Below, one piece after another: positions 1-21,414 of a DNA stretch of 64,000 nucleotides; the first letter of the stretch is position 1; each line of letters begins with the position of its first letter. This DNA is from Thermodesulfobacteriota bacterium. GTDB taxonomy: Bacteria; Desulfobacterota_D; UBA1144; Nemesobacterales; CSP1-2. The notes beneath the pieces were generated by a model. It was not told where the DNA came from, did not search any database, and worked only from the letters and a program-made list of their open reading frames with translations. The translations under genes were made by a program, and so were the position numbers. The DNA is taken from NCBI GenBank assembly GCA_049682815.1, contig JBAUII010000078.1, positions 37,763 through 101,762 on the forward strand. Direction: 5' to 3'.

Positions 1-1656
1 AGATATACCTATTACCGGTATACCCCAGAAGACTGCAAAGTAATCGAACTTCTCCCAATAAGTCCACCTGTCCAGTTTTGGACGAGCACCCAGGTATAAG
101 AACCAGCGTACGTTTCGATAGAGATCGACTAGGTCTTCCCTTCGAGGAATCATGGAATTAGGACCATACAGAAGGGTTATGTCGCCCTTTGAAAATATCT
201 TGTCCAGCATATAGCCGAGATGAAAACTAATGTAACCCAATGTCACTATTGCAAAGAATCTATGGAAGTACCTTGTTACCTCTACTCCACCGAGTATACC
301 TTCCAGAATTCTCCCCCACCACGTGTAATTATACATAAGCGGTAGTCCCGTCGCAGCAAGTCCTAAGAAACTAATAATAACGGCGACGTGGGTAATTCGA
401 GTGGGAAGGCTAAATCGGAGAACATACTTGCCACTGCTCCAGCGAGTAGGAACCTCTCCCTTCGCAACTGCTACAGCCGACCGTTGAAACCAAAGAACCA
501 TATGGAGCCCAAAAAAGCCAAAAACTGAAATAAGGAGCCAATTCATCAAGGAATAGACGTAATAAAGCAGAGGAGATCTATCCGGATCGCCGGGATCAGC
601 ATGTGGGTCATAGCTTACAAATTTCTCACTTATATCAGCGTGACACCTGCCACAAGTATTAATCAGATTGGCAGGGTAGACTGAAGAAAGTGGGTTGTCA
701 TTGGGGAGATTCAGGTGAGGTGTATGGCAGTCTGAGCATTTTGCAACCTGAACAAACCCTAGCGACGTTGACTGCCCGTGAAATGTATCCTGATAGGTAA
801 GCGCCCTCTCCCCATGGCATACACTGCACTCCTCTGATATCTGAAGCCTGAATCCAGCTGACACGGGCTCCGTGATCTGATGGGATTTGTGACATGTCGT
901 ACACACTGGTCCCACGTCAAGTCCTTCCTTCCAGAGCTGTCCATGTATACTCCTCTCATACTCATCATAAATTCCAAGGTGACACTTCTTACAGGTAAGT
1001 GGTATATTCTCTCTGTAGACACTCGAGTTTTTGTCAGTTTTTGGCCTTATGTTATGTGCACCATGGCAGTCGGAGCAAACCGCGGAGACAACTAATCCAC
1101 TGACAAGGACGCCACGGCCGTGAACACTTTCGCTGTAGCTCTCGATAAATTCCGGTGACGGGAGAGGGTGCTCCTTTGTGATCTTTTCGCTTGTATGGCA
1201 ATTTGAACATGTCGCAGGAATATTCAATGGGTTTATACGAGATTTAGGGTTATCCTTTGGAAGAATACCGTGTGAGCCATGACAACTCGTGCAAATTGGG
1301 GCATCGCTATCACCCCTCGCTATCGCTTCACCATGTATGCTTTCGGAGTATTCTTTTGCAATCTCCGGGTGACATGAAGAGCAATCAACCTTATTCGGAA
1401 TTTCCTCGTGGGGTATTTCTGTTACGTCCTGATGGCAATCTGTGCACTCGAAGCCACTATGGATTGAGGCATCTAAGAGTCCTTTATCAACCAAGGGTTC
1501 CATCGTTTCGTGACACACAAGACAGTCTTCGCTTTTAGGCTCTTCAGAACGGGAAGCAACTGTGAAGGGACAAAGAATTAAGAAGAAAAGAGTTAAAAAA
1601 AACAATGACTCATTTGATCGCGTAACTTTTATCACATGTTGCCTGTTCTTTAACAT
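1..1656 (-). CDS. Multiheme cytochrome c (11 CxxCH motifs) fused to a C-terminal diheme b-type cytochrome domain (HydC/FdnI/Ni_hydr_CYTB-like). The 3' end runs off the window. CbcL-like.
   Basis: The minus-strand frame is open from position 1 to about 1656, so it is absent from the complete-ORF track. Reverse-complement reading gives CLVCH, CTDCH, CSSCH, CTSCH, CSNCH, CSDCH, CKKCH, CTTCH, CSVCH, CSDCH and CGRCH. These are followed by four or more hydrophobic helices carrying conserved His (LHMVLWF, THVAVII, RYFHRFF..FHLGYM). The N-terminus MLKNRQ..SLFFLTLFFLILCPFTVAS is signal-like. The start is assigned to the ATG at 1656-1654. Confidence 0.7.
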   Translation of the reverse strand, partial: MLKNRQHVIKVTRSNESLFFLTLFFLILCPFTVASRSEEPKSEDCLVCHETMEPLVDKGLLDASIHSGFECTDCHQDVTEIPHEEIPNKVDCSSCHPEIAKEYSESIHGEAIARGDSDAPICTSCHGSHGILPKDNPKSRINPLNIPATCSNCHTSEKITKEHPLPSPEFIESYSESVHGRGVLVSGLVVSAVCSDCHGAHNIRPKTDKNSSVYRENIPLTCKKCHLGIYDEYERSIHGQLWKEGLDVGPVCTTCHKSHQITEPVSAGFRLQISEECSVCHGERALTYQDTFHGQSTSLGFVQVAKCSDCHTPHLNLPNDNPLSSVYPANLINTCGRCHADISEKFVSYDPHADPGDPDRSPLLYYVYSLMNWLLISVFGFFGLHMVLWFQRSAVAVAKGEVPTRWSSGKYVLRFSLPTRITHVAVIISFLGLAATGLPLMYNYTWWGRILEGILGGVEVTRYFHRFFAIVTLGYISFHLGYMLDKIFSKGDITLLYGPNSMIPRREDLVDLYRNVRWFLYLGARPKLDRWTYWEKFDYFAVFWGIPVIGIS

Positions 1657-1830
1657 ACAGCCAATAGTTTGGTGCAACCGGTATCTTTGACCATCAAACC
1701 AAGACGTGCGGGAAGCTTATGCATGTTTTTTCGCCTGAATCCTTTCATTTCGTTACGAAATCAAACGGATTTTTAAGTCACATTTTTAAGACATATTTTT
1801 AGCTTCCTATAACCCCTAACTTAAAAATTT

Positions 1831-3033
1831 CTACGTTTCAAGTTTAACCTCTGCTTCCTTCCATGGCGGCAACAGAGCAACGAGGATGTACAGAATAATA
1901 AATGGGAGCGTTAGAAAGAATAACGCCACCAAGAGCCCTTCAATTCCGAGCAATTCCATTTTGTAGGTTGTAAGTCCTCTTAAACTCTTGGAAAATAATT
2001 GCCCCCCGATAACCACATTCCATCTTATACTAAAGATTCCTATCAGGGTAAGAATTGCACTTCCAAAGTAGATAAGGCGCCTTAACTCATCAGGAAGGCG
2101 CGTCAACTTTGTCCATGCCAACAAAACCATTGGAATTATAGTTCCTAGCAGCATCTGAATCACAACCATACTGATGAACAGCTTACTGATTAAAAGCTGG
2201 TACAGTATTTTTATGGATTCTTCTGATTCGTAAATGCGGTGAATGAAGTCAAGGTTTTCCAGTGAGAAGTCCAGTATCATTGCATAGAGCAAAAAGGAAG
2301 CGAGCTTATCCATACAGGCCATATCCACGCTTCTTCGTCGAAAGAGAGTAATAACCATATAGAGTAACATGACAAGCGCAATCCCCGATACTATAGCGGA
2401 AAACAAAAAAACTACGGGCATAAGCACACTGCTCCACCAGGGATTCGCCTTTACAGAGCCAAAAATAAAACCCACATAACCATGAAGGAGGAAAGCGGAT
2501 GGAATACCGATGATGGTTATAAATTTTGCCGCCTTTCTGTCAAACTGAAGAGATCTTTCTGAGAGGTCTGAAGCCCCAAGCGTTAAGATGAGGTAAATAA
2601 ATCTTTTCAACCCCTTTTCTTTAGTAGACCAGACAACGATATCCTTTCTGTACTCAAACCACAATTCCACAAGAAGGACGACCAAGAGATACCAGCCATA
2701 TACAAAGCCAAACATGGCCATAGCGGACCTGAAATTGGGTGTGAGAAAAATTTCATAGGCCCGTTCGGGATGTCCTAGATGAGCCACAAGAGGAAGAGGC
2801 GCGACAATGAGGAAAGCAAGCGCAGTGAGAAGCGAAAGCCGGTAGGTAGGCTCTACCGCCTTAACATTAAAAACCCTTTCCAGGGAAGCAAGAATAAAAG
2901 CACCTGCTACAAGACCAGTAAGATAGGGATAAACAACAATGAGGATGCTCCAATGGAGCTCAATCTCATTGGGATAGATGAAGCCTGTAATTTCTTTAAG
3001 GGAAATGGCAAGTCGCTCAAGTAAGGGATCCAA
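1831..3033 (-). CDS. NrfD/PsrC-family polytopic membrane subunit (quinone-interacting, heme-less)
   Basis: A 400-aa ORF with 8-10 predicted TM helices and NrfD-like character (LHWSILIVVYPYLTGL..., HLGHPERAYEIF). It lies directly downstream of an NrfC-like FeS gene. Confidence 0.75.
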   Translation of the reverse strand: MDPLLERLAISLKEITGFIYPNEIELHWSILIVVYPYLTGLVAGAFILASLERVFNVKAVEPTYRLSLLTALAFLIVAPLPLVAHLGHPERAYEIFLTPNFRSAMAMFGFVYGWYLLVVLLVELWFEYRKDIVVWSTKEKGLKRFIYLILTLGASDLSERSLQFDRKAAKFITIIGIPSAFLLHGYVGFIFGSVKANPWWSSVLMPVVFLFSAIVSGIALVMLLYMVITLFRRRSVDMACMDKLASFLLYAMILDFSLENLDFIHRIYESEESIKILYQLLISKLFISMVVIQMLLGTIIPMVLLAWTKLTRLPDELRRLIYFGSAILTLIGIFSIRWNVVIGGQLFSKSLRGLTTYKMELLGIEGLLVALFFLTLPFIILYILVALLPPWKEAEVKLET

Positions 3034-3846
3034 CTAAGTAACCTCCTTGTCTAGATTCGCATAGTAGACCTTGGGTTCTGTATTAAGATAGGGCTTTAAG
3101 ACACCAATATTGTTGAATCGGACAAAACGCGCAAGGGGATTGTTGCGAGGTTTTACTTCTCCAAAAGTTCTTGCTCCAGTGGGACATACCTCTACGCACG
3201 CAGGCTGCAATCCCTTTACGATTCTGTGATAGCAAAATGTGCATTTGTCCGCCGTCTTTGTCTCGGGATTGAGATATCTCGCTCCATAAGGACAGGCCTG
3301 AATGCAGTAACGACATCCTATACAGTAATCTTTATCAACGAGGACAACGCCGTCTATTGACTGGTATGTGGCTCCAACAGGACAGACCTGCACACAGGGT
3401 GGATTATTACATTGATTACATAACTTTGGAACAAAAAACGTGCGTAGGATTTCCTTTTCACTAATGGGTTCAGGAAAACCGTGCATTCCACCTTCAGGAC
3501 TGTCCACACTCGTTTCCCCATCGACTGTAATAGTATATCTTTCCACCCAGGTTCTAAAGAAATAGGGTTCCTTAGGAACATTATTTTCAATCTTGCACGC
3601 CTCTACACATCGTCCACACCCTATGCACTTATCGATGTCAATACCCATAGCATAGTAGTGCTCCCTCGGATTGTATTTCCCATAAATACTTTCCAATGTG
3701 GAAGTGCTTTCACTAGATGCCTTTTTCAAGAAGGGGAATAGCTTAGAAAAAAGCCCGCCAAGAAAAAACCCGGAGGGGATTATGAGAAGGCTTTTAAGAA
3801 AGTTCCTCCTATTTGTTACGTTATCAAGAAGCTCTTTAGCATTCAT
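3034..3846 (-). CDS. Tat-exported 4x[4Fe-4S] ferredoxin subunit, NrfC/PsrB/HybA-like
   Basis: Twin-arginine motif RRNFLKSLLI. Four Cys clusters are present: CIGCGRCVEAC, CNQCNNPPCVQVCP, CIGCRYCIQACP and CTFC..CVEVCP. It overlaps the upstream cytochrome gene at ATGA. Confidence 0.8.
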   Translation of the reverse strand: MNAKELLDNVTNRRNFLKSLLIIPSGFFLGGLFSKLFPFLKKASSESTSTLESIYGKYNPREHYYAMGIDIDKCIGCGRCVEACKIENNVPKEPYFFRTWVERYTITVDGETSVDSPEGGMHGFPEPISEKEILRTFFVPKLCNQCNNPPCVQVCPVGATYQSIDGVVLVDKDYCIGCRYCIQACPYGARYLNPETKTADKCTFCYHRIVKGLQPACVEVCPTGARTFGEVKPRNNPLARFVRFNNIGVLKPYLNTEPKVYYANLDKEVT

Positions 3847-4592
3847 TGCTTCTCATCCTCCTTTGTGCGCGCTTCAGGATAATGGGGGTAGTGACACTCC
3901 CAGCACAAAAAACCATTGCCATGGGTTTTAATGTCGACACGCGGAATTTCAGGGGAACTTTCGGCTTCCTGTGCGTGGCACTGTCCACAGAATTCTCTAT
4001 TCCTCGGTTTATCCGGCAAAGCCATCCTTGGGTTTAATTTATGCTCTTCCTTCGCTTCGTGGCATCGAGTGCAGGCTAGGGGTGCGTGGGGTGACACAAT
4101 TTTAGTTCGAGCGATTTGCGTGTGGCATGGATCGCATTCTTCGGGCGTGACCGGAGGAACCGGATCATGGGGATTATGACAGAAAATGCAAGGCTTACCC
4201 GGATTATGCCTAACAGGGTCAATCTGTGGGAATCCTGTGGGTCTCGTGGGATTATATCCATGACACAATGGACAATAGGCGCGTTTTCTTGGTGCAGGGG
4301 GTTTGTACTCATACGGGTCCTGGGTATGGGCATAGGCAGGCCCATGGCATACTTCACAGGCGACCCCCCGATGGTATGATTTGTCTTTCAAAACGTATAT
4401 ATCATCATGGCATTCGGTGCATGCAGTTTCCCCGCCATACTTAATTTCCCTGGAGACTGCGGATTGTAATGAATCGGCACGATAATGACCGTATTGCCCA
4501 AAACTTGCGGGCATAAGAAAATGGCGGACAATTAGGAAAATGAAAATCAAGACAATAGAAAGGGCGAGAAGATATTTTATCTGTTGGGGCAT
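3843..4592 (-). CDS. Octaheme c-type cytochrome with N-terminal membrane anchor
   Basis: The 249-aa ORF contains 8 CxxCH motifs (CTECH, CEVCH, CPLCH, CIFCH, CDPCH, CTRCH, CGQCH, CWECH). An N-terminal hydrophobic helix YLLALSIVLIFIFLIV is present. Confidence 0.8.
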   Translation of the reverse strand: MPQQIKYLLALSIVLIFIFLIVRHFLMPASFGQYGHYRADSLQSAVSREIKYGGETACTECHDDIYVLKDKSYHRGVACEVCHGPAYAHTQDPYEYKPPAPRKRAYCPLCHGYNPTRPTGFPQIDPVRHNPGKPCIFCHNPHDPVPPVTPEECDPCHTQIARTKIVSPHAPLACTRCHEAKEEHKLNPRMALPDKPRNREFCGQCHAQEAESSPEIPRVDIKTHGNGFLCWECHYPHYPEARTKEDEKQ

Positions 4593-4722
4593 TCCTGACT
4601 CCTTTCACAATATCAAAAAATAATTAGGACCCCCTTTTTCTTCTGTCATAGTTTTCATGGACAAGAACGTTTTTAAGATCATCATGTTGTAAAGTCGCGC
4701 CTTTGCCTGAAATTTATGCAAT

Positions 4723-4750
4723 AAATGTGCCACAATAGATCGGCACATTT
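4723..4750. promoter_or_regulatory. Perfect 9-bp inverted repeat AAATGTGCC-N10-GGCACATTT between the dtxR 3' end and the cytochrome-operon 5' region
   Basis: Read directly. It could be the terminator stem for the feoB-dtxR unit or an operator for the cytochrome operon. Confidence 0.25.
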
Positions 4751-4826
4751 GCCATGTAACAATGCTTTAAACGAAAAAACTCGGTTAGTTTGTTCAAATT
4801 CCAGTAGCATATGGCAGCCAATGGAT

Positions 4827-5483
4827 CTACGTCGAGACCTTTCTTACGTATATATGTCTCGCAATTTCATCATCTATGGCAATATCTGTTTCTCCAGCTC
4901 TCAATACATATGCAGGTTGTTTTTGGTGGAGGACGATCTCCGCTCCAGGAATGATTCCCAGGTTGGTGAGTTGATGCAATCTTCTATGGTGCCTTGGTAC
5001 TAAAAAGATTATCTTTACCCTATCTCCGGGAATTACTTTGGCGAGTGGAACGACAAATTCTTTGGTTTCCTCTTTAAAAATTCCGCAGCATTCTCCCGGA
5101 GGGATCGGCTTTTCATGTGGACAAAACCTGGGATGTCCAAGGAAAGCGCAAATGGATTCCGTGACCTCTGAACCGAGAATATGTTCAAGCTCACAGGCCG
5201 TAGAGTCCATTTCACTGGAGCCTACCTGGAGTATGTCTTTAAGAAGCTTCTCCGCTAGACGGTGACGCCTGACTATCATTTTCGCCCTCGCGTCGCCCAT
5301 TATGGTAAGGCTTATTTTACCGTCAATATCACTTATAAGATCTGCTTCCAGAGCACATCTGATAGCTTTTTTCACGTCTTTATTCCAAGACCTTATGTAG
5401 ATTGTTTCTTCGTCTTGGATGCCTTCCTCCCTGAGCTTCCAGATAAGCTCAAGCAGTTCATCGCTTTCTTCATCGTATTTCAT
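4827..5483 (-). CDS. DtxR/IdeR-family metal (iron)-dependent transcriptional repressor with C-terminal FeoA/SH3-like domain
   Basis: The N-terminal wHTH and metal-binding regions resemble DtxR. The C-terminal part (VVPLAKVIPGDRVKII...GIIPGAEIVL) is FeoA/SH3-like. The gene sits downstream of feoB. Confidence 0.8.
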   Translation of the reverse strand: MKYDEESDELLELIWKLREEGIQDEETIYIRSWNKDVKKAIRCALEADLISDIDGKISLTIMGDARAKMIVRRHRLAEKLLKDILQVGSSEMDSTACELEHILGSEVTESICAFLGHPRFCPHEKPIPPGECCGIFKEETKEFVVPLAKVIPGDRVKIIFLVPRHHRRLHQLTNLGIIPGAEIVLHQKQPAYVLRAGETDIAIDDEIARHIYVRKVST

Positions 5484-5692
5484 GCTCTTCCCTCTTGTTT
5501 AAAGAATTTTTTTAGCCACAAAATAAGTCTTGACTCCTGGGGGAAGGAGTATCCGCATCTCGGGCAGCAGACCAACAGGCAGTCTCCTATACTTATCTGG
5601 CAGCTTATGCATCTTTCCCTTCCCTCTTCCTTATAAAATTCCTCTCCACACAAGGGGCAGGAGATTAGATTCCGAGGCTCCACAGTATCCAA
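5480..5692 (-). CDS. Small Cys-rich zinc-ribbon protein, possible Feo accessory
   Basis: The 70-aa ORF carries CPLC..CISC..CCPRC. It overlaps the feoB 3' end by 28 nt and the dtxR start by 4 nt. No RBS was evaluated, so confidence is low. Confidence 0.4.
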   Translation of the reverse strand: MDTVEPRNLISCPLCGEEFYKEEGRERCISCQISIGDCLLVCCPRCGYSFPQESRLILWLKKFFKQEGRA

Positions 5693-7629
5693 TTCGTCAT
5701 ACCTCCCACAATAATGGCTATGAAAAGAACTATCGCGACTATAATAAGGGCGGTTCTGAGCCCTTGTTCCTTTATAATGATTAGAAAGTTGGCAACACAG
5801 GGGACAAATAGCGTAATCGTAACAAGACTTACTAAAACCTGATGGCTGCTCAAGTATCCGCCCTGTTGAAGATCGAAAAGACCGGCAGCACCGTAGTCTC
5901 TTCTCAGGAATCCGATTAAAAAGGCATTCGTAGCCTCTTTGGGAAGGTCAAGGAATTTTACTACGACCGGTGAAGCCAGATTTTGTAAAAATCCAAGAAC
6001 CTTTAACCTATCCAAGACAAAAAGAATTATCGTTCCCAAGACAAACAGTGGGACCGCTTCTTTCAAATACCATTCGAGTCTCGCAACAGTCTTAATGATT
6101 ACGTTACCAATCTGTGGAATCCTTATGGGCGGAACCTCAATGATAAGATCTCGGCTTTCTCCTTTTACGAAGTAAGAAGCAAGGAAGCCAACTGTAAAAA
6201 GAACAATACAAATTTCTACCCCCCAAAAGAAAATACCCCACCGAGGTAGAGTAGAAGCCATAGCAAACACCACAGCCAGCTGGGCCGAGCACGGGATTCC
6301 TACAGCCAGAAGAAATATCACAATTAGCCTTTCCTTTTTCGTCTCGAGCATCCTAGTGGTAAGGGTTGCCATTGTGTCACATCCCAGCCCCAGTACCATC
6401 GGGAGTACAACTTTTCCATTTAGACCCATTAACTTAAACACCCTGTCAACCATAATGGCCAGCCTTGGGAGGTATCCGGAATCTTCGAGGATACTAAAAA
6501 AGATGAAAAATGTGCAGATTACGGGAAAGATTATTGCGAGCGAGTATGTCAGCGCCATAGTAATTATTCCAAAATCGCCTACGAGAAAATCAATCAATAT
6601 CTTGTAGGGAATAATCTTGGGTATGGCTATTTTAAAAAAGGGGTTTATATATCCTTCAAAGACGGTTACCTCCAAGAAATCAACGAATGTTCCTGCCCCC
6701 AGTTTTCCCACAAAGAGGTATGCGAGGTAAAGTATTAGAATTAATATAGGGATCCCAAATAGAGGATGAGTCGATGTCCGTCCTAAAAGATCCAGGGTTC
6801 GGTTGTCTGATTTAAAAGAAGGAGTTGATACCTTCTGAACGATTTCTCTTGCGAGCTCAAGCCTCTTCAGACCGATGAAATAGCTTATAGGATATTCCCT
6901 GGAGCCGAGCTTTGAGAGTGGATCAAGTCCGGCAATCGAGTCTAGCTTTTCTTTAGGAATTCTGCTAATAATGTTCTCATCCATGTTGCAGTCGCCTGAT
7001 ACAATAGAAAGACCTATAAATCTTGAGAAATGAGGGTTTGATAGAATTTTTTTCATTTCGTCTAACATTCCTTCTATAGCTTGAGAGTAAGAAACTCTCA
7101 GTTGAGGGATAGTCGAATTTACAAGTTCGTTCTTAATTCCTTCTATTCCTTTTCTTTCGATAGCCACAGTCGGAACGATAGGAACCCCAAGTTTCTGAGA
7201 GAGCTTTGCTATGTTAATGTCGACTCCTCTGTGTTGCGCTTCATCCATCATATTCAACACTATGAGTAGGGGAAGTCCCATTTCTGCAATCTGGGTTGTT
7301 ATATACAGACCCCTCTCCAGGTTTTTAGCGTCTATAACCTGAATTATAAAGTTAGCTTCACCTTCTAATAAAATATTTCTAACAACCCTTTCGTCTTCCG
7401 ACGTCGGCGTCAGGCTATTAATCCCGGGCGTATCGATAAGAGAAATCGTTTCTGACCCGATTTTCATCTCTCCCGAGGTTATCTCGACCGTTGTTCCGGG
7501 ATAATTTGAAACCGTAACGTATCTCTTGGTAAGCGAACCAAAGAGTAAGCTCTTTCCGACATTTGGGTTACCAATTAGAGCAGCCTTCTTTGGATGAGCC
7601 GGGTTCTCAGACTTGGTTTTGTTAAACAT
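5665..7629 (-). CDS. feoB: Ferrous iron transporter FeoB (G-protein domain plus membrane permease)
   Basis: The N-terminal GTPase has G1 GNPNVGKS and a DTPG motif. Long polytopic C-terminal domain; 654 aa. Confidence 0.9.
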   Translation of the reverse strand: MFNKTKSENPAHPKKAALIGNPNVGKSLLFGSLTKRYVTVSNYPGTTVEITSGEMKIGSETISLIDTPGINSLTPTSEDERVVRNILLEGEANFIIQVIDAKNLERGLYITTQIAEMGLPLLIVLNMMDEAQHRGVDINIAKLSQKLGVPIVPTVAIERKGIEGIKNELVNSTIPQLRVSYSQAIEGMLDEMKKILSNPHFSRFIGLSIVSGDCNMDENIISRIPKEKLDSIAGLDPLSKLGSREYPISYFIGLKRLELAREIVQKVSTPSFKSDNRTLDLLGRTSTHPLFGIPILILILYLAYLFVGKLGAGTFVDFLEVTVFEGYINPFFKIAIPKIIPYKILIDFLVGDFGIITMALTYSLAIIFPVICTFFIFFSILEDSGYLPRLAIMVDRVFKLMGLNGKVVLPMVLGLGCDTMATLTTRMLETKKERLIVIFLLAVGIPCSAQLAVVFAMASTLPRWGIFFWGVEICIVLFTVGFLASYFVKGESRDLIIEVPPIRIPQIGNVIIKTVARLEWYLKEAVPLFVLGTIILFVLDRLKVLGFLQNLASPVVVKFLDLPKEATNAFLIGFLRRDYGAAGLFDLQQGGYLSSHQVLVSLVTITLFVPCVANFLIIIKEQGLRTALIIVAIVLFIAIIVGGMTNWILWSLGI

Positions 7630-9915: not shown

Positions 9916-10575
9916 ATGAATCTCCTTTTAGCTCTGACTTTTATATCAATGCTTGGTTCGCTCTATGCTTCATTTATTTACGCGCCGACCGAGAGGATCA
10001 TGGGACCGATCCAAAAAATTTTTTATTTCCATATGGGAACCGTTTGGGTCGCCACAATTTCATTTGTAATCGTGTTTGTTGCAAGTATACAGTATCTGAG
10101 AAAAGAAAGTCGCAACTGGGATATTCTGGCCTACTCTTCTGCTGAAATAGGGGTGGTTTTTATCACGCTTACGATAGTATCGGGTAGTATTTGGGCAAAA
10201 CCAATCTGGGGGACCTGGTGGACTTGGGATCCGCAACTCACTACTACGTTTATTCTCTGGATTCTCTACATTGTTTATATGATAGTGCGTTCATCTGCGG
10301 GTAATGATATTAGGAAGGCAAAATTTGCCGCTGTTTTCGGGATTATCGCGTTTTTAGACTTGCCGCTTGTTTACATTTCGGCGAGAGTTATGCGTGGAAT
10401 CTCCCCGGTTGTGTTTGGATCCCGTGGGGGTGGTATTGCGCCGGAGATGATGGTAGCATTGCTCGTTACACTAGTAGCTTTTACTTTTTTGTTCATCTTG
10501 ATACTTAAGCATAGAGTAGAACTAGAAATCATGAAAGATAATATCCTTAGGATTAGATTAATGGAGGCAAAGTAA
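9916..10575 (+). CDS. ccmC: Heme exporter protein CcmC (System I cytochrome c maturation)
   Basis: Six TM helices. The tryptophan-rich WWD-type motif WGTWWTWDPQLT is present. Confidence 0.85.
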   Translation: MNLLLALTFISMLGSLYASFIYAPTERIMGPIQKIFYFHMGTVWVATISFVIVFVASIQYLRKESRNWDILAYSSAEIGVVFITLTIVSGSIWAKPIWGTWWTWDPQLTTTFILWILYIVYMIVRSSAGNDIRKAKFAAVFGIIAFLDLPLVYISARVMRGISPVVFGSRGGGIAPEMMVALLVTLVAFTFLFILILKHRVELEIMKDNILRIRLMEAK

Positions 10576-10581
10576 AAGCAG

Positions 10582-10725
10582 ATGTCTTATCTTTTCTGGT
10601 CGCAAGTAATTTTTTGGATTGTACTTTTGCTATATGTTTATTATCTTATTAGAAAAAACCATAACTTGAAAATTCAGTTAGAGTCTATCGAGTCTTCTCT
10701 GAATTCGAATGAAGGAAGTCGGTAG
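10582..10725 (+). CDS. ccmD: Probable CcmD (small single-TM heme-exporter subunit)
   Basis: A 47-aa ORF (MSYLFWSQVIFWIVLLLYVYYLIRKN...) sits between ccmC and ccmE. It has a single hydrophobic helix followed by basic residues. It is below the ORF-track size cutoff. Confidence 0.45.
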   Translation: MSYLFWSQVIFWIVLLLYVYYLIRKNHNLKIQLESIESSLNSNEGSR

Positions 10726-10752
10726 CTTATTTATTGCAGTGAGGACGGTTAA

Positions 10753-11169
10753 TTGATGCTAAAAGGAAAGACAAAATTCATAGTAGCAATCACTGTGATC
10801 GCAGTTGCTATAGCATACCTTGTTTACGGTGGCGTCAATGATACGATGATCTACTATCTTACCGTTCAGGAATTGAAGGACAAGGTACCTTCAGTGTATA
10901 AGCAAAAAGTAAGGGTCTCGGGAAAGGTTGTTCCCGGATCGATAAGGAATGAGATTGATGGAAGTCTAGAGTTTACGATTGCGGACGGGGAAGAAACATT
11001 GGATGTAAAGTATAAGGGAATAGTTCCGGATATATTTAAGGACGACGTCGAAGCGGTCGTTGAGGGTCTATATACACCGGATAACGTATTTGTGGCTAGT
11101 TTGTTGTTGGCCAAATGTCCCACCAAGTACGAATCCACAGATTCTTTAAAAAGGTCTGAAAATATATAA
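10753..11169 (+). CDS. ccmE: Heme chaperone CcmE, variant type with CxxxY (LAKCPTKY) in place of the canonical HxxxY heme-binding motif
   Basis: N-terminal TM followed by an OB-fold domain (VRVSGKVVPGSI...). The C-terminal motif has Cys where His130 normally occurs. Confidence 0.8.
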   Translation: MMLKGKTKFIVAITVIAVAIAYLVYGGVNDTMIYYLTVQELKDKVPSVYKQKVRVSGKVVPGSIRNEIDGSLEFTIADGEETLDVKYKGIVPDIFKDDVEAVVEGLYTPDNVFVASLLLAKCPTKYESTDSLKRSENI

Positions 11170-11170
11170 A

Positions 11171-13171
11171 ATGGTCGAAACTGGAAGTATTTCTATATTT
11201 TTAGCTTTTATACTCTCCGTCTACGTGATATTTGCTTCGGTCGTTGGTGCGAAAACCAGAAGGAATGATTTAATCAAAAGTGCCGAGAACGGTTCACTTG
11301 CAGTCTGCTTTCTTCTAATCATAGCAGCCGTCTCGTTGATACATGCTCTCCTGAATCTAGATTTCAGCCTTAAATATGTCGCCTTAAACGCCAGCAGCGA
11401 TCTCTCTACTATTTACAGGATAACAGCATTGTGGGCGGGCCAGGCTGGATCCCTGCTTCTTTGGTGCCTAATACTCTCAGTATATACATCCCTTGTAGTA
11501 ATTCAGAACAGGAGACGAGGCAGATTCACACCATTTGTTATCGCAACACTCGCTGCTGTTTCGACCTTCTTTGTATTTCTTATAGCCTTTGTCGAGAGTC
11601 CTTTTGAAAAGCTACCTTTCGTCGCCGAGGAGGGAAGGGGGCTAAACCCGATTCTGCAGAATGGCTACATGGCGATTCATCCTCTCACCTTATACCTCGG
11701 TTATGTCGGAGTCACAGTACCCTTTGCATTTGGGATGGGTGCTCTTCTGAGCGGCAAGTTGGATGACGAGTGGATAAGACAATGCAGAAAATGGGCATTG
11801 CTTGCATGGACATTCTTAAGCCTTGGTTTGTTGTTGGGTGCAAGGTGGGCCTACTTGGAACTCGGTTGGGGTGGCTATTGGGCATGGGATCCCGTGGAGA
11901 ATGCCGCATTTATGCCATGGCTTGCCGGAACAGCGTTTGTTCACTCGGTAATGATTCAAGAAAAAAGGGGAATGCTGAAGAAGTGGAATTTATCGCTGAT
12001 AATACTCACCTTTTTCCTGGCAATATTTGGCACCTTTGTTACCAGAAGCGGGATAATTTCCTCGGTTCATTCGTTTGCCCAGTCAGACATTGGCCCCTAT
12101 TTTCTGGGTTTTATAGGTTTCATACTTATTTTCTCATTTGCAATGTTCACTCTTAGATTAGATGATCTTAAAAGCGATAATCATTTCGACTCTATTCTAT
12201 CAAGAGAGAGCGCTTTCATATTTAACAACCTTCTTTTTCTGGGTGCCGCTTTTACCGTTTTCCTGGGAACAATATTCCCGATAATATCCGAACTAATTAC
12301 GCGGAACAAGATTCTTGTTGGTCCCCCCTATTTTAATAAAGTGAATGTTCCGATCGGTTTAGTATTGATACTTCTGATGGGAATCGGTCCGTTAATTTCC
12401 TGGAGAAAGGCCTCAAAGGATAATTTAGTCAGGAATTTCACGTTTCCAGTAGCAATCGGAGTTCTGACATCTGTAATCTTATTCGTTTTCGGAATCAGAC
12501 ACATTTATGCTCTTATTTCTTTCGGCCTGTGCGCGTATGTAACTGCAACCGTGTTTGTCGAATACTACAGAGGGATAAGAGTCCGAGTTAGAAGAGGGGA
12601 AAATTATTTGCGAGCCTTCGGGAGACTCGTATCCAAAAACCGTAGGAGATACGGTGGCTACATAGTCCATCTCGGAGTTGTTTTGGTAGTGATCGGTATA
12701 ACTGGCTCATCTGTTTTTGTTAAGCAAAAAGAGGCAACACTGAAACCAGGGGAATCCATGAGCGTTGGTGATTTTACTTTGAGCTTCGGTGATCTCAACC
12801 AGTATACGACAGATGCGAAACATGTGACAGCCGCTAGCCTCTCAGTATATAATGGCGAAAGAAAGATCGGAGCAATCGTTCCTGAAAAGAATGTGTATAT
12901 TTACTCCGGAAATCGTGAGATCAATCAAGAAACTGAGGTTGCGATTCTCTCTTCATTTACACATGACCTCTATGTAATACTTTCAAGTTTTCAAGATGGT
13001 AGCGCTAGCTTCAGGGTTTTAATAAATCCAATGGTATCGTGGATCTGGGCCGGCGGCGTGGTTCTACTTTTGGGGGCAATCGTTACTATGTGGCCTACTC
13101 CCAGCAAAAAGGAACAGGAAGTACTTGTCAGATATAGTATAGGATCAAAGGACAGGACGGCAGAAGTTTAG
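11171..13171 (+). CDS. ccmF: Cytochrome c-type biogenesis protein CcmF (heme lyase component)
   Basis: 666 aa and polytopic. WWD-type motif LGWGGYWAWDPVEN. The start codon follows the ccmE stop by 1 nt. Confidence 0.85.
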   Translation: MVETGSISIFLAFILSVYVIFASVVGAKTRRNDLIKSAENGSLAVCFLLIIAAVSLIHALLNLDFSLKYVALNASSDLSTIYRITALWAGQAGSLLLWCLILSVYTSLVVIQNRRRGRFTPFVIATLAAVSTFFVFLIAFVESPFEKLPFVAEEGRGLNPILQNGYMAIHPLTLYLGYVGVTVPFAFGMGALLSGKLDDEWIRQCRKWALLAWTFLSLGLLLGARWAYLELGWGGYWAWDPVENAAFMPWLAGTAFVHSVMIQEKRGMLKKWNLSLIILTFFLAIFGTFVTRSGIISSVHSFAQSDIGPYFLGFIGFILIFSFAMFTLRLDDLKSDNHFDSILSRESAFIFNNLLFLGAAFTVFLGTIFPIISELITRNKILVGPPYFNKVNVPIGLVLILLMGIGPLISWRKASKDNLVRNFTFPVAIGVLTSVILFVFGIRHIYALISFGLCAYVTATVFVEYYRGIRVRVRRGENYLRAFGRLVSKNRRRYGGYIVHLGVVLVVIGITGSSVFVKQKEATLKPGESMSVGDFTLSFGDLNQYTTDAKHVTAASLSVYNGERKIGAIVPEKNVYIYSGNREINQETEVAILSSFTHDLYVILSSFQDGSASFRVLINPMVSWIWAGGVVLLLGAIVTMWPTPSKKEQEVLVRYSIGSKDRTAEV

Positions 13172-13236
13172 AAATTTCCTCTCTTTGCCATTTTAATCCT
13201 TTTATTGAATAGTTCCAGAAAGCTAGGAATGTCAAA

Positions 13237-13764
13237 TTGGAAATAATTATCTTATTGGCGATTGTGATTCTTACGGCAGTCTTTATAACGTTACCTTTCT
13301 TCAGAAAAAATACCGAAGTAGAAAACCCCATTGAGCAGAAATCTAATCCTATTGAAAACCCTGCTTTAATAGAGTTGAAAAAGCTTACCTCTGAAAAGGA
13401 ATTACTATACACGGCGTTGAATGATATAGAATTTGATTACGGACTCGGAAAACTATCGAGAGAAGATTATGATGAGCTTAAACGAGAATACCAAGCAAAA
13501 GCTGTGTCCGTACTGAAAGAGATAGACGAAATTAGTAAAGGTCTACATTCTACAGAGTTAGAAGATGAATTAGAAAAAGAGATAACGGCGATAAGGAAGT
13601 CAAAATCACACGATGAAAATGAAATCGAAGATGAAATTTTGAAAGCCCGAAAACAGCACAACGATAAAAATAGATATCTAACATGTATTAATTGTGGGAG
13701 GCAATACAGCGCAGGGGATCTTTTTTGTTCAAGGTGCGGTATCGGCCTAAAAGATGTCAGCTAA
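13237..13764 (+). CDS. Membrane-anchored coiled-coil protein with C-terminal zinc ribbon (CINCG...CSRCG), function unknown
   Basis: N-terminal TM helix, charged coiled-coil region, and CxxC-N12-CxxC at the C-terminus. It is co-oriented with ccmF and overlaps the next gene by 11 nt. Confidence 0.5.
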   Translation: MEIIILLAIVILTAVFITLPFFRKNTEVENPIEQKSNPIENPALIELKKLTSEKELLYTALNDIEFDYGLGKLSREDYDELKREYQAKAVSVLKEIDEISKGLHSTELEDELEKEITAIRKSKSHDENEIEDEILKARKQHNDKNRYLTCINCGRQYSAGDLFCSRCGIGLKDVS

Positions 13765-15241
13765 GGTACTTAATTTCGAAGGAATAAATAATTTGTTTGT
13801 TATCTCGACGATAGCATTTTTGCTTCTTTCGTCTACGGTCTTTTTCGGAGTAGATATCTTTGCTCAGGTGGATGCCGAGAAGGCGGATCTTGGAAAGGAT
13901 CTATTTATCCAAAATCGATGCGTTAATTGTCATACAATTGGCAGGGGTAGATTTGTAGGCCCGGACCTGGCAGGGATCAGCAGCAGATACAGTAAAGATG
14001 AAATCAAGCAATGGATAGAGAATCCTCAACAGGTGTACCAGGCCAAGGGTAAAATGCCCATAAACGAGGGCTATCCTCCGATGCCTCCGCTACAGGTTCC
14101 GCAAGCTCATATTGACGTCATTGCAGACTATCTTTTTACTAAAAAACCCGTTCAATCTACAAAAGATTATGGTGATATTAAGGGTAGTGTCACGAACAAG
14201 ACTGGTGACGAGCCACCCGTTGGAATCGAAGTTGCCCTGCGTGAAATGTTAGGAGATCGTGTTACGGATGAAAAAACACTTATGACAGACAAAAATGGAG
14301 CTTTTGAATTTAGAGATTTACCCTGGAACCGTAGCTATACGATTACCCTAAATTATAGGGGCACCGAATATGTAACGGATAAGTTGGTTTTTTACCCGGA
14401 TGAGGATACGAAGACTATTGAGCTACCCGTATATGAACCAACCGAAAGTGACAGTGAGATAATAATAAAACAAGCTCATATGATCTTACAGGTCTCTACG
14501 GACTCGATTTCGGTCGCAGAATTATTGATGTTTGAAAACAGAGATAAAAAGATATACGTCGGTTCTGACGTGGTTGATGGGAAAAGGGAGACCTTAAAGT
14601 TTCGTCTACCCAGTGATGCCAGCAATATTCAGTTCATTCATGGCATTACAAGTGAAAACGTTGTTCAAACCGAATCTGGATTTTCGGATACGTCTCCGGT
14701 CTGGCCGGGTGCTAGAAGGGTGGTTTACACCTATACAATTCCATTTAAATCCGGGAACAATGTGATCGAAGACAGGGTGAATTATCCCACTGATAGTTTC
14801 CTGCTTCTTATTTCCGATTCGGCTGAGAAAGTGACTGTGGAGGGCCTTAGTGGAGGGGATGTCGTAGATATTCAAAATGAAAAGTTTGTTCAGTGGACTG
14901 GCAGCAATCTAAAACCTGGCTCTTCAATAGTGGTAACTATAAATAAATCGTTTGATCGTGAATCGATCGCTAAGTGGGCTGCATTTTGCGTGGTTTTACT
15001 TGTTGTTGGGGGTGGAATCCTATACGCATTTGTTTTCAAAGGAAAGGGGTTTGATAGAAATGAAAGCAAGAAAACTTTGAGTGATATTGAAAAGGAAAGG
15101 GCTATGTTGATACAGGACATTGCGGAGCTCGACGATAGATTTGAGAGTGGAGGGTTGGATGAGGAAATATATAGAAGGGCGCGTGCGGAGAAAAAAGGGA
15201 GATTAATTAAACTGGTTCAGCGAATAGCTGAACTAAGTTAA
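13754..15241 (+). CDS. Membrane-anchored monoheme cytochrome c domain protein with a beta-sandwich (carboxypeptidase-regulatory-like) domain, a second TM helix and a C-terminal coiled coil
   Basis: N-terminal signal/anchor, then a class-I cytochrome c fold (CVNCH ... KMP), then GSVTNKTGDEPP...NGAFEF. A second TM (WAAFCVVLLVVGGGILYAFVF) and a charged coiled-coil tail follow. Confidence 0.6.
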   Translation: MSAKVLNFEGINNLFVISTIAFLLLSSTVFFGVDIFAQVDAEKADLGKDLFIQNRCVNCHTIGRGRFVGPDLAGISSRYSKDEIKQWIENPQQVYQAKGKMPINEGYPPMPPLQVPQAHIDVIADYLFTKKPVQSTKDYGDIKGSVTNKTGDEPPVGIEVALREMLGDRVTDEKTLMTDKNGAFEFRDLPWNRSYTITLNYRGTEYVTDKLVFYPDEDTKTIELPVYEPTESDSEIIIKQAHMILQVSTDSISVAELLMFENRDKKIYVGSDVVDGKRETLKFRLPSDASNIQFIHGITSENVVQTESGFSDTSPVWPGARRVVYTYTIPFKSGNNVIEDRVNYPTDSFLLLISDSAEKVTVEGLSGGDVVDIQNEKFVQWTGSNLKPGSSIVVTINKSFDRESIAKWAAFCVVLLVVGGGILYAFVFKGKGFDRNESKKTLSDIEKERAMLIQDIAELDDRFESGGLDEEIYRRARAEKKGRLIKLVQRIAELS

Positions 15242-19925: not shown

Positions 19926-20510
19926 ATGCAGATGGAAACTGATATCGAGCTCATGAGGAGAGTCAAATCAGGGGACGACAGTGCGTTCACAGAATTAATG
20001 AAAAGACACTACAAGTCTATTATGAATTATATATATCGTTTTACTAATGATAGAAATGATTCAGAAGACTTAGCCCAAGAAGTCTTTTTAAGGGTTTACC
20101 GATCGGTAAAGGAATACAAACCGCAGGCTAAATTTTCCACATGGCTCTATAAAATTGCAACGAATGTGTGCCTAACTGAAATAAAAGTGAAAGGCAGAAT
20201 GAATAAAGTGAGTTTAGATGAAATTCAGGAGAATAAGCAGGATATCGGAGATTCGAACTCCCCGAGTGGTTATGATTTGATCAACAGAAGGGACATTAAG
20301 GATAGCATTTTTCAAGCATTAAATTCAATACCTGAGAAGGAGAGGATTTCGATTATTCTTTGCAAATACGAAGGGTTGTCCTACGATGAGGTAGCCGGTG
20401 TAATAGGATGCACCGTGGGCGCTGTTAAGACATATATTCATAGAGGAAGAATGAAACTGATCGAAAAATTAAAACCAATTTTGGAAGAGAGGGGAGAAAA
20501 TGAATTGTGA
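19926..20510 (+). CDS. RNA polymerase ECF-type sigma-70 factor
   Basis: The sigma-2 region (DLAQEVFLRVYR) and sigma-4 region (LSYDEVAGVIGCTVGAVKTYIHRGR) are conserved. Confidence 0.85.
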   Translation: MQMETDIELMRRVKSGDDSAFTELMKRHYKSIMNYIYRFTNDRNDSEDLAQEVFLRVYRSVKEYKPQAKFSTWLYKIATNVCLTEIKVKGRMNKVSLDEIQENKQDIGDSNSPSGYDLINRRDIKDSIFQALNSIPEKERISIILCKYEGLSYDEVAGVIGCTVGAVKTYIHRGRMKLIEKLKPILEERGENEL

Positions 20511-20991
20511 GAATTTCAAGGACTTGATACTCGATTACACTATCGATGACCTAGACGAGTCACGGACGCACGAGTTGAAAGTACATTTAGACGTGTGCAA
20601 AGAATGTAATGAATTTCTGTCATTCGCAGACCTAGAATGGAAGTTACTGGATAAATGGGAAGGGATCGAACCAAAAGACGACTATATAACAAAGTTTTGG
20701 GAAAGATCGAATCATCGGGAAGAAGGTCGTAAACCATCGTTATTCAATCTCTTTAACTACCGGGTGCCGAATTGGTCGTATATATCCGTTGTGTCTCTAT
20801 TCCTCATTATCTTTGTCGTTGCAATTGTATATGTGACGACGGAAAATAGTGTAGTTAAGTATACGGAGAAGGACAGAGAGGACGAAGAGCTACTATTCGA
20901 AGTTGACAGAACAATATCTTTCGACAGTGCGGACATGTTGGAGATCTATGGGCTTTGGAAGGTTGGCAACGACAGCAACAAGGGAGGGTAG
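20500..20991 (+). CDS. Putative anti-sigma factor (zinc-finger HxxxCxxC, single TM)
   Basis: It overlaps the sigma gene by 11 nt. HLDVCKEC motif and a central TM helix are present. Confidence 0.6.
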   Translation: MNCENFKDLILDYTIDDLDESRTHELKVHLDVCKECNEFLSFADLEWKLLDKWEGIEPKDDYITKFWERSNHREEGRKPSLFNLFNYRVPNWSYISVVSLFLIIFVVAIVYVTTENSVVKYTEKDREDEELLFEVDRTISFDSADMLEIYGLWKVGNDSNKGG

Positions 20992-20994
20992 GAA

Positions 20995-21414
20995 TTGAAA
21001 AAGACTTGCTTCATTATTTTATCTTTAATCTTGTTTTACTCACTAAACGCTTACAGTCATGGCGGCTTTGGGAGTGCCAAGTGGTGGAAAGATGCCGAAG
21101 TTGTCAAGGAACTTAATTTAACAAACGATCAAGTCAACCTCATAGAGCAAATATTCAACAGTAACAAAGGCCAAATAGCAGACTTGAATTCACTACTAAA
21201 ACAGAAACAATCAGAGTTCCGATCGAAGATCGAAGACCCAAATTCAAGTCGGGATGAAGTTCTGGAACTAAATGATGAGGTGGTGCACTTAAAGACAAAG
21301 TTGAAAAGACTCAGGCTAGATATGTTATTAAAAATAAGAGAAGTACTGACACCGGAACAAAGGCAAAACCTACACAAAATCAGGTTCACCGAATTTAAGA
21401 AGAAACATAAATAA
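20995..21414 (+). CDS. Periplasmic Spy/CpxP-like LTxxQ-motif protein
   Basis: Signal peptide, two LTxxQ motifs (LTNDQ, LTPEQ), helical and basic. Confidence 0.6.
   Translation: MKKTCFIILSLILFYSLNAYSHGGFGSAKWWKDAEVVKELNLTNDQVNLIEQIFNSNKGQIADLNSLLKQKQSEFRSKIEDPNSSRDEVLELNDEVVHLKTKLKRLRLDMLLKIREVLTPEQRQNLHKIRFTEFKKKHK

Follow-up and report, generated by a model that had tools for sequence, protein, structure and literature searches.

Candidate quinone-pool:cytochrome c oxidoreductase modules in a putative sigma-54-type operon from a relative of Candidatus Dadabacteria

[quoted passage not shown] Several exit types appear to be grouped at the start of a 64,000-nt stretch of DNA (contig JBAUII010000078.1, positions 37,763 to 101,762; hereafter 'the window') from a Thermodesulfobacteriota bacterium related to a Candidatus Dadabacteria metagenome-assembled genome (MAG). 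Four co-directional genes on the minus strand, here called A, B, C and D, encode an octahaem cytochrome c, an iron–sulfur (FeS) protein of the ferredoxin type, a haem-less NrfD-type membrane protein and a fusion of an 11-haem cytochrome c domain with a cytochrome b domain. On balance, we favour the view that they open a multi-module operon of the sigma-54 type, which would specify at least two independent inner-membrane quinone-pool:cytochrome c oxidoreductases, i.e. a Cbc4-like trio (A-B-C) and a CbcL-type protein (D) in the window, to which synteny adds an ImcH-type and a CbcBA-like system beyond its edge. A previous interpretation of the same DNA, the sequence-only reading, had described exactly these four parts, and profile matches in Pfam and NCBIfam bear out its domain assignments; it had also joined them into one four-gene module and called the presence of an NrfD-type protein and a c::b fusion in one operon uncommon.

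Neither of these latter two statements agrees with how the genes are distributed elsewhere. Two sets of loci were collected, one anchored on D-like genes in named genomes and one on C-like genes in metagenomes (80 loci each), and their flanks were searched with the window proteins. Directly upstream of C, both A and B are present in 40 of the 43 metagenome loci that have room for them, with A nearly always carrying eight CxxCH motifs; A-B-C is a self-contained and strongly conserved unit. B and C together lie within 10 kb of D in 18 of the 80 D-anchored loci, or in 11 of 40 where the flanks reach at least 8 kb on both sides, and conversely D-, E- or G-like genes (E being the gene that follows D in relatives) are found near the trio in 9 of the 34 C-anchored loci whose extra flank amounts to 5 kb or more. 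The pairing of the trio with CbcL-/ImcH-like genes is thus recurrent but modular, at about a quarter of loci, and too frequent to be called uncommon.

Where the modules are linked, their arrangement varies: the order is ABC-D-E in Dadabacteria, ABC-E-D in 11 Verrucomicrobia loci, and D..ABC-E or D-ABC elsewhere, and in one Myxococcota and one Thermodesulfobacteriota locus linked modules lie on opposite strands. The Verrucomicrobia loci (L026-L086, from 11 genomes; e.g. L035:5459-12097) encode a tetrahaem version of A, then B, C, an ImcH-like protein and an 11-haem CbcL-like protein. Several of them also encode a monohaem cytochrome c and another FeS/NrfD pair that is more distant; one such pair is fused to a cyclic nucleotide-binding (cNMP-binding) domain. 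In two further metagenome loci (L145:11222-15251 and L154:3205-7259), what follows the trio is not a fusion: an 11-haem cytochrome and a cytochrome b are encoded there by separate open reading frames (ORFs), and a pair of a 9-haem cytochrome and a cytochrome b comes after them; this suggests fusion or fission of c and b parts within the gene set, although an assembly frameshift could also have split these ORFs. Partial linkage together with variable order and strand argues for independent modules that are often kept together rather than for subunits of one enzyme, and since A-B-C and D are separate in most loci, the single four-gene module has to be given up.

The encoded proteins and the genes beyond the window edge

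The four genes lie where the sequence-only reading had placed them. A (3843..4592, minus strand, 249 aa) overlaps the start of B (3034..3846, minus strand, 270 aa) by 4 nt, and B and C (1831..3033, minus strand, 400 aa) abut without a gap. C and D are separated by an intergenic spacer at 1657..1830; this gap had been described before, with a length of 175 nt, and in fact measures 174 nt. D is cut by the window edge, so that the end of the operon lies outside: its N-terminal part (622..1656, minus strand) comprises a signal or anchor sequence and the periplasmic 11-haem cytochrome c domain, and its C-terminal part (1..621, minus strand) is the FdnI/HydC-type cytochrome b membrane domain. The 19 CxxCH motifs that had been counted in the two cytochromes, eight in A and eleven in D, are indeed there and are far above chance; in the rest of the 64 kb only three open frames contain at least one such motif. 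The frame of D, whose continuity had been left to be checked, is unbroken at 1-1656 (552 aa) right up to the window edge.

A has a single N-terminal transmembrane helix, by which it would be anchored in the membrane, and consists of a duplicated tetrahaem unit: its halves are homologous to each other (E 2e-13), and residues 1-144 align to tetrahaem A-like proteins of Verrucomicrobia (E 1e-37). All eight CxxCH motifs and eight further histidines are invariant in the family. A appears to bind eight bis-His electron-transfer haems, and the eight invariant distal histidines point to a wire rather than to a catalytic haem. A search against PDB sequences gave no match to nine-haem cytochromes, and a fold comparison gave none to ActA. 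The family has more than 900 members that are annotated as hypothetical or are mislabelled, among them a 56%-identical homologue in a Melioribacteraceae MAG; many of 855 representatives are proteins of about 150 aa that match the part formed by residues 1-144 only. Automatic labels given to A homologues include 'ribosomal protein S27AE' and 'DnaJ-class molecular chaperone', presumably because of their Cys-rich motifs.

B carries a twin-arginine (Tat) motif, RRNFLK, near its start, as expected of a Tat-exported subunit of the NrfC/PsrB type, and exactly 16 cysteines, which fall into four groups of the ferredoxin type and would suffice to bind four [4Fe-4S] clusters. It matches Pfam Fer4_11 with an E value of 2e-28, and its nearest solved relative is PsrB (2vpw_B, E 1.4e-47). 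The top NCBIfam models are TtrB and DsrO; with these two, as with NrfC, QrcC and HmcB, B stays under the curated cut-offs. C belongs to the NrfD family (PF03916, E 9e-43) and presumably provides the quinone/quinol site. Its best, weak NCBIfam match is NrfD of the nitrite reductase system, and the NrfD and DsrP family models likewise score under their cut-offs on the trio proteins. More than 100 clusters of C homologues have 68-98% identity, and even across phyla (sources labelled Zixibacteria, Aminicenantia and others) C remains 68-80% identical. Single-sequence and profile searches against the PDB gave no match to C, which was therefore placed by fold comparison alone. The predicted structure (predicted local distance difference test, pLDDT, 66; predicted template modelling score, pTM, 0.70) is most similar to ActC of alternative complex III (ACIII), with 8k9e_C (E 5e-8) and 6btm_C (template modelling score, TM, 0.71) as best matches; the ActC chains give E values of 5e-8 to 2e-5 and TM values of 0.59-0.71, ActF comes next, and the 8-helix PsrC is matched only in part.

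In D, the signal or anchor is followed by 11 CxxCH motifs, all invariant in 18 homologues, and then by the hydrophobic membrane domain. The latter gives weak matches to PF01292 (Ni_hydr_CYTB; 21.8 bits vs a gathering score of 30.1) and to TIGR01583 (formate dehydrogenase gamma; 38 bits), and P0001, a full-length relative of 672 aa that is 88% identical to D, comes with 30.2 bits just to the PF01292 gathering score. At the threshold used, a hydropathy scan finds four helices past the haem domain. Relatives have 658-672 aa, so about 120 C-terminal residues are missing here. His385, 423, 465 and 479 are invariant in the alignment with homologues, and three more histidines in the missing C-terminus are conserved in at least 90% of the aligned D homologues. 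Outside its own lineage D is about 50% identical or less. The CbcL/MtrH/MtoC family was defined as proteins of 416-1034 aa with 3-23 CxxCH motifs and mostly six transmembrane helices homologous to HydC/FdnI with conserved histidines (Zhong & Shi 2018, PMC6295460). Table S2 of that study lists KRT67040.1 from Ca. Dadabacteria CSP1-2 as a homologue with 670 aa, 11 motifs and six transmembrane helices, its motifs being spaced as in P0001 and D but shifted by 2-3 residues. Judged by architecture and motif spacing, D is a separate CbcL/MtrH/MtoC-type protein, an orthologue of which has been catalogued since 2018: its periplasmic multihaem c domain is fused to an FdnI/HydC-type cytochrome b with conserved histidines. 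Compared by architecture with CbcL of Geobacter sulfurreducens itself (GSU0274; Zacharoff et al.), D differs in having 11 instead of 9 haems and about 670 instead of 619 aa. In Geobacter, moreover, cbcL is treated as a cluster of one gene, whereas D shares its operon with further quinone modules.

Exact-sequence look-ups of B and C returned no record, and how the operon continues past the edge was read from three syntenic relatives, i.e. two metagenome contigs (L001 and L003) and the Candidatus Dadabacteria MAG (L008), where D is 87% identical. In these, A-B-C-D is followed by a 502-aa protein and a two-component system of the NarL type that is divergently transcribed; after it come an M48 peptidase and a 9-haem cytochrome paired with a cytochrome b of 260-264 aa. 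The 502-aa protein E (L001:3987-5495) has transmembrane helices at residues 14-32, 45-63 and 98-116, CGTLCH at 130, six CxxCH motifs and a match to PF03264 (E 1e-11), and the signature of ImcH is three N-terminal transmembrane helices, CX3CH, 5-9 CxxCH and similarity to NapC/NirT. The gene after D in the relatives can therefore be classed as ImcH-type by its sequence features, and synteny suggests that the present genome has it as well; the cytochrome b/9-haem pair a few kilobases past the edge in the relatives looks CbcBA-like. Thus, the four genes were rightly described as co-directional members of an operon, but their number does not stand, since the relatives have at least five. Past D, no molybdopterin subunit is encoded in the three relatives, nor is there one upstream in the window. 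The earlier statement that the locus lacks such a subunit is upheld by both observations and by its failure to recur in 103 related loci, and a catalytic subunit just beyond the edge, which the sequence-only reading had allowed for, is not present in the syntenic relatives.

Proposed electron path, known counterparts and direction

In the first of the proposed modules, menaquinol would be bound and oxidised at the periplasmic face by the haem-less, NrfD/ActC-like C, from where electrons would pass via the four [4Fe-4S] clusters of B to the eight bis-His haems of A, which could then hand them to soluble periplasmic cytochromes. The second module would consist of the single polypeptide D, whose cytochrome b domain, taken to bind two haems, would trade electrons with the quinone pool and pass them to its own 11-haem domain. 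An ImcH-type NapC/NirT-like cytochrome as a third and a CbcBA-like pair as a fourth module would follow beyond the edge. All of them would connect to the quinone pool in parallel, as exits or as entries, rather than being subunits of a single enzyme. In Geobacter, each of ImcH, CbcL and CbcBA works in its own window of acceptor potential; by analogy, the modules described here are probably tuned to different acceptor potentials as well. For this locus, the parts with their cofactor-binding motifs, the synteny and the linkage counts were observed; the formation of complexes, the direction of electron flow, the partners and the use of the promoter described below are what we infer.

The comparison with Cbc complexes and ACIII made in the sequence-only reading was reasonable, as the model of C is nearest to ActC and A-B-C has the composition of Geobacter Cbc4. 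In Cbc4 (CbcSTU, GSU0068-0070), CbcS binds four bis-His haems, arranged much as in NrfH, behind a linker and an N-terminal anchor of 29 residues; CbcT carries four [4Fe-4S] clusters, and CbcU is the integral membrane subunit. Cbc4 is itself without an assigned physiological role. B is of the same four-cluster type, with its 16 cysteines and Tat motif, and C is a membrane subunit encoded next to the FeS subunit. A, however, has eight haems owing to its tetrahaem duplication, and it is on composition that the likeness to GSU0068-70 rests. With ACIII, the cluster shares the general layout, in which a haem-less NrfD-type subunit, presumed to bind quinol, is followed by FeS clusters and a membrane-anchored multihaem cytochrome, and the model of C matches ActC, the 10-helix quinol-binding subunit, with a TM value of about 0.7 over about 400 columns. 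In contrast to ACIII, B lacks the molybdopterin-like domain of ActB and aligns with no more than the FeS part at the C-terminus of ActB chains, which have 933-1039 aa; furthermore, there is one NrfD-type gene instead of two, and ActD and ActE have no equivalents in the operon, either here or in relatives. Full membership in ACIII was rejected on these three grounds.

Pairs of an FeS protein and an NrfD-type anchor without a molybdenum subunit have been annotated in other bacteria. In the candidate phylum MBNT15, a multihaem cytochrome takes the place of the molybdopterin subunit beside an FeS and NrfD-like module, and in Melioribacter roseus an NrfCD pair (Mros1571-1572) occurs without a molybdenum subunit; both have been read as quinol:periplasmic-cytochrome reductases. 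These accounts are annotations, with which the present locus was compared by description, and neither description includes an octahaem subunit or linkage to CbcL-/ImcH-like genes. A multi-omics paper on Melioribacter contains nothing on the NrfCD cluster, and inner-membrane modules are not treated in a paper on Caldithrix and in a 2026 preprint on extracellular electron transfer in peat.

The most serious alternative is that the modules run in reverse, as periplasmic cytochrome:quinone reductases that feed the menaquinone pool with electrons from donors in the periplasm or outside the cell, such as Fe(II), H2 or formate by way of cytochromes, or a syntrophic partner. Such a function has been proposed for MtoC of iron oxidisers and shown for Qrc/Nhc-type complexes. 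Within the CbcL family, MtoC and MtrH occur in metal reducers as well as oxidisers, with no sequence feature that tells the two directions apart. Moreover, NhcABCD and QrcABCD of sulfate reducers are quinone reductases built on the same plan as the trio, i.e. a periplasmic multihaem cytochrome c, a four-cluster FeS protein and a 10-helix NrfD-type subunit with no catalytic site, and the window contains oxidative tricarboxylic acid (TCA) cycle genes and no acceptor-side conduit. Against reversal speaks that the co-located ImcH- and CbcBA-type genes have been characterised solely as quinol oxidases in Geobacter, and that neither the window nor 10 kb of flank in its close relatives contains an mtoAB/mtrAB-type or Cyc2-type gene. 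In addition, no QrcB-like or NhcD-like gene is present here, and A and B score far under the HmcA, HmcB and QrcC family models that represent the Hmc/Nhc and Qrc systems (19.6 bits vs a cut-off of 400 for HmcA, and 90.7 vs 420 for HmcB). We regard reverse operation as unlikely, though it deserves more weight than the other alternatives considered below.

The C–D spacer, a promoter-like element and the question of a single complex

The sequence-only reading went further and placed an internal promoter in the gap between C and D. On the operon strand, neither a sigma-70-like nor a terminator-like site was found in 1657-1830, the scans over the window giving about what shuffled sequence leads one to expect, and even a relaxed search for sigma-54 sites with up to two mismatches found nothing in the spacer on this strand. 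Its predicted RNA fold is no better than that of shuffles (z -0.11), and there is no Rfam match within the window. An internal promoter is thus unsupported, though not disproved. Even so, the identity of the spacer in three close relatives is 92-94%, compared with 87-91% for D coding DNA and 81% for the region upstream of A, whereas in L003, a relative that is 79-84% identical, it is swapped for about 60 unrelated nucleotides.

Upstream of A, by contrast, there is a candidate promoter. TGGCACATTTATTGC, at 4718..4732 on the minus strand and about 126 nt upstream of the A start, is the sole perfect match to the -24/-12 consensus of sigma-54 (RpoN), TGGCAC-N5-TTGC, in the 64 kb, where 0.02 would be expected. 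The element is conserved in L008 and L003, and in the latter case it lies inside a 32-nt stretch that is the sole upstream segment common to L003 and the window; in another relative, L088, the corresponding operon is preceded by TGGCACGGCTATTGC. Across A-like genes in general, the element occurs upstream in 4 of 50 loci, vs 0 of 50 on the control strand; it is lineage-specific and not family-wide. From this consensus match the operon would be of the sigma-54 type, and sigma-54 dependence has likewise been described for cbcBA of Geobacter. Just upstream of the element there is a 14-nt inverted repeat (4741-4754). L088, in which C is 98% and the A-C DNA 95-97% identical, has an extra ORF of 160 aa without a Pfam match (L088:7778-8260, plus strand) between the sigma-54 element and A; the corresponding segment of about 600 nt is absent from the window (4593-4826).

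These data also bear on the idea, put forward in the sequence-only reading, that A-B-C-D is one four-subunit complex in which the NrfD-type and cytochrome b sites act jointly, for instance in a transmembrane electron loop that cycles quinone and either conserves or dissipates energy. The genes are co-directional, the only promoter-like element found is that upstream of A, the C-D spacer is unusually conserved in close relatives, and the linkage of B-C to D-like genes in about a quarter of loci extends over several phyla and is well above chance. What counts more in our view is that D is missing from most A-B-C loci, as is A-B-C from most D loci, that order, spacing and strand vary, often with an ImcH-like gene between the trio and D, and that D is set apart by its spacer while A, B and C overlap or abut. 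D also evolves faster: the DNA identity to L008 is 95% for A-B-C and 87% for D. Finally, CbcL of Geobacter acts as the product of a single gene. A single complex is accordingly quite improbable, and we see no specific support for a transmembrane electron loop.

The preferred reading, i.e. independent modules working as parallel exits from the quinone pool, has to contend with several points of its own. A linkage of about 25% is far above chance and would be compatible with functional or even physical coupling between the modules. The sigma-54 element is a consensus match, and the regulators encoded nearby in relatives are of the NarL type and not sigma-54 activators. The ActC-like fold of C is predicted from a model of moderate confidence. 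The direction of electron flow is not readable from sequence, with MtoC proteins as CbcL homologues in iron oxidisers and with Nhc and Qrc reducing quinone. Nor does the 64-kb window contain an outer-membrane conduit or any further multihaem cytochrome, so that an extracellular end-point is suggested by analogy only, and in the literature we found no experimental work on any member of the A-B-C family.

A possible enzyme partner, the wider family and the chromosomal surroundings

A third possibility is that A-B-C serves as membrane anchor and electron delivery for a periplasmic enzyme whose gene lies elsewhere in the genome, for example a molybdoenzyme or a cytochrome c reductase of nitrite, sulfite or tetrathionate, as NrfBCD does for NrfA and MccCD for MccA. 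NrfBCD has the same plan of haem wire, FeS protein and NrfD, B is nearest to PsrB, TtrB, DsrO and NrfC, and the nitrite-reductase NrfD is the best, if weak, NCBIfam match of C. Yet all these family models stay under their curated cut-offs, all eight haems of A are apparently bis-His, and in 103 loci no catalytic gene recurs beside the trio, the genes that do recur nearby being other quinol oxidase types. No neighbour family occurs in more than 12 of these loci, and the ten that were annotated—monohaem cytochrome c, a Rieske protein, cytochrome b, a second NrfD-type protein, a small multihaem cytochrome, sensor and regulator proteins, DUF2339 and two without a Pfam match—include no molybdopterin enzyme. 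Delivery to such an enzyme is hence very unlikely, and a truncated enzyme of the Psr/Ttr/Nrf kind (complex iron–sulfur molybdoenzymes) was rejected, as a catalytic subunit is found neither in the window nor in relatives nor recurrently in the 103 loci.

Both modules in the window are of widespread, already catalogued kinds, and their presence side by side is common and not rare; the locus itself reveals no new principle. The most useful by-product of the analysis is the recognition of the trio as a very widespread conserved module, apparently without experimental study. This Cbc4-like trio is common in many uncultured phyla and strongly conserved, has no functional name in the databases consulted, and is a reasonable target for biochemistry as well as a candidate marker gene set for metagenome surveys. 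One may speculate, and we do so tentatively, that the trio, with its tetra- or octahaem A, is a distinct and very widespread 'mini-ACIII' class of quinone-pool:cytochrome c oxidoreductase that is functionally coupled to CbcL-/ImcH-type enzymes. Equally tentative is the accompanying idea that trio and partners form a conserved respiratory gene set in Dadabacteria, Verrucomicrobiota, Myxococcota, Glassbacteria, Zixibacteria and others. If this were so, the trio might be the branch of electron transfer, extracellular or periplasmic, through which these uncultured groups conserve energy by translocating ions.

The chromosomal context upstream of the operon is ordinary, with an iron and haem theme: it includes an iron-dependent repressor::FeoA fusion, FeoB, a CcmC/E/F haem-lyase system, a HemD/CobA fusion and a ferritin, followed by housekeeping and TCA-cycle genes. 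Directly upstream and on the same strand as the operon (4827-7629, minus strand) lie the 218-aa repressor::FeoA fusion, an ORF of 70 aa that is Cys-rich and resembles a zinc ribbon, and FeoB; these Feo neighbours are also found next to the operon in L088 and are fragmented in L003. Further on (9916-15241, plus strand), the System I maturation genes for CcmC, CcmE and CcmF precede those for a zinc-ribbon protein (175 aa) and for a larger protein (495 aa) in which a monohaem cytochrome c domain is joined to a CarboxypepD_reg-like domain, an unusual pairing that also occurs in L003. At 19926-21414 (plus strand), an extracytoplasmic function (ECF) sigma factor forms a small cluster of the envelope-stress type with an LTXXQ/metal-resistance periplasmic protein and a 163-aa ORF that matches nothing in Pfam and may encode an anti-sigma factor.

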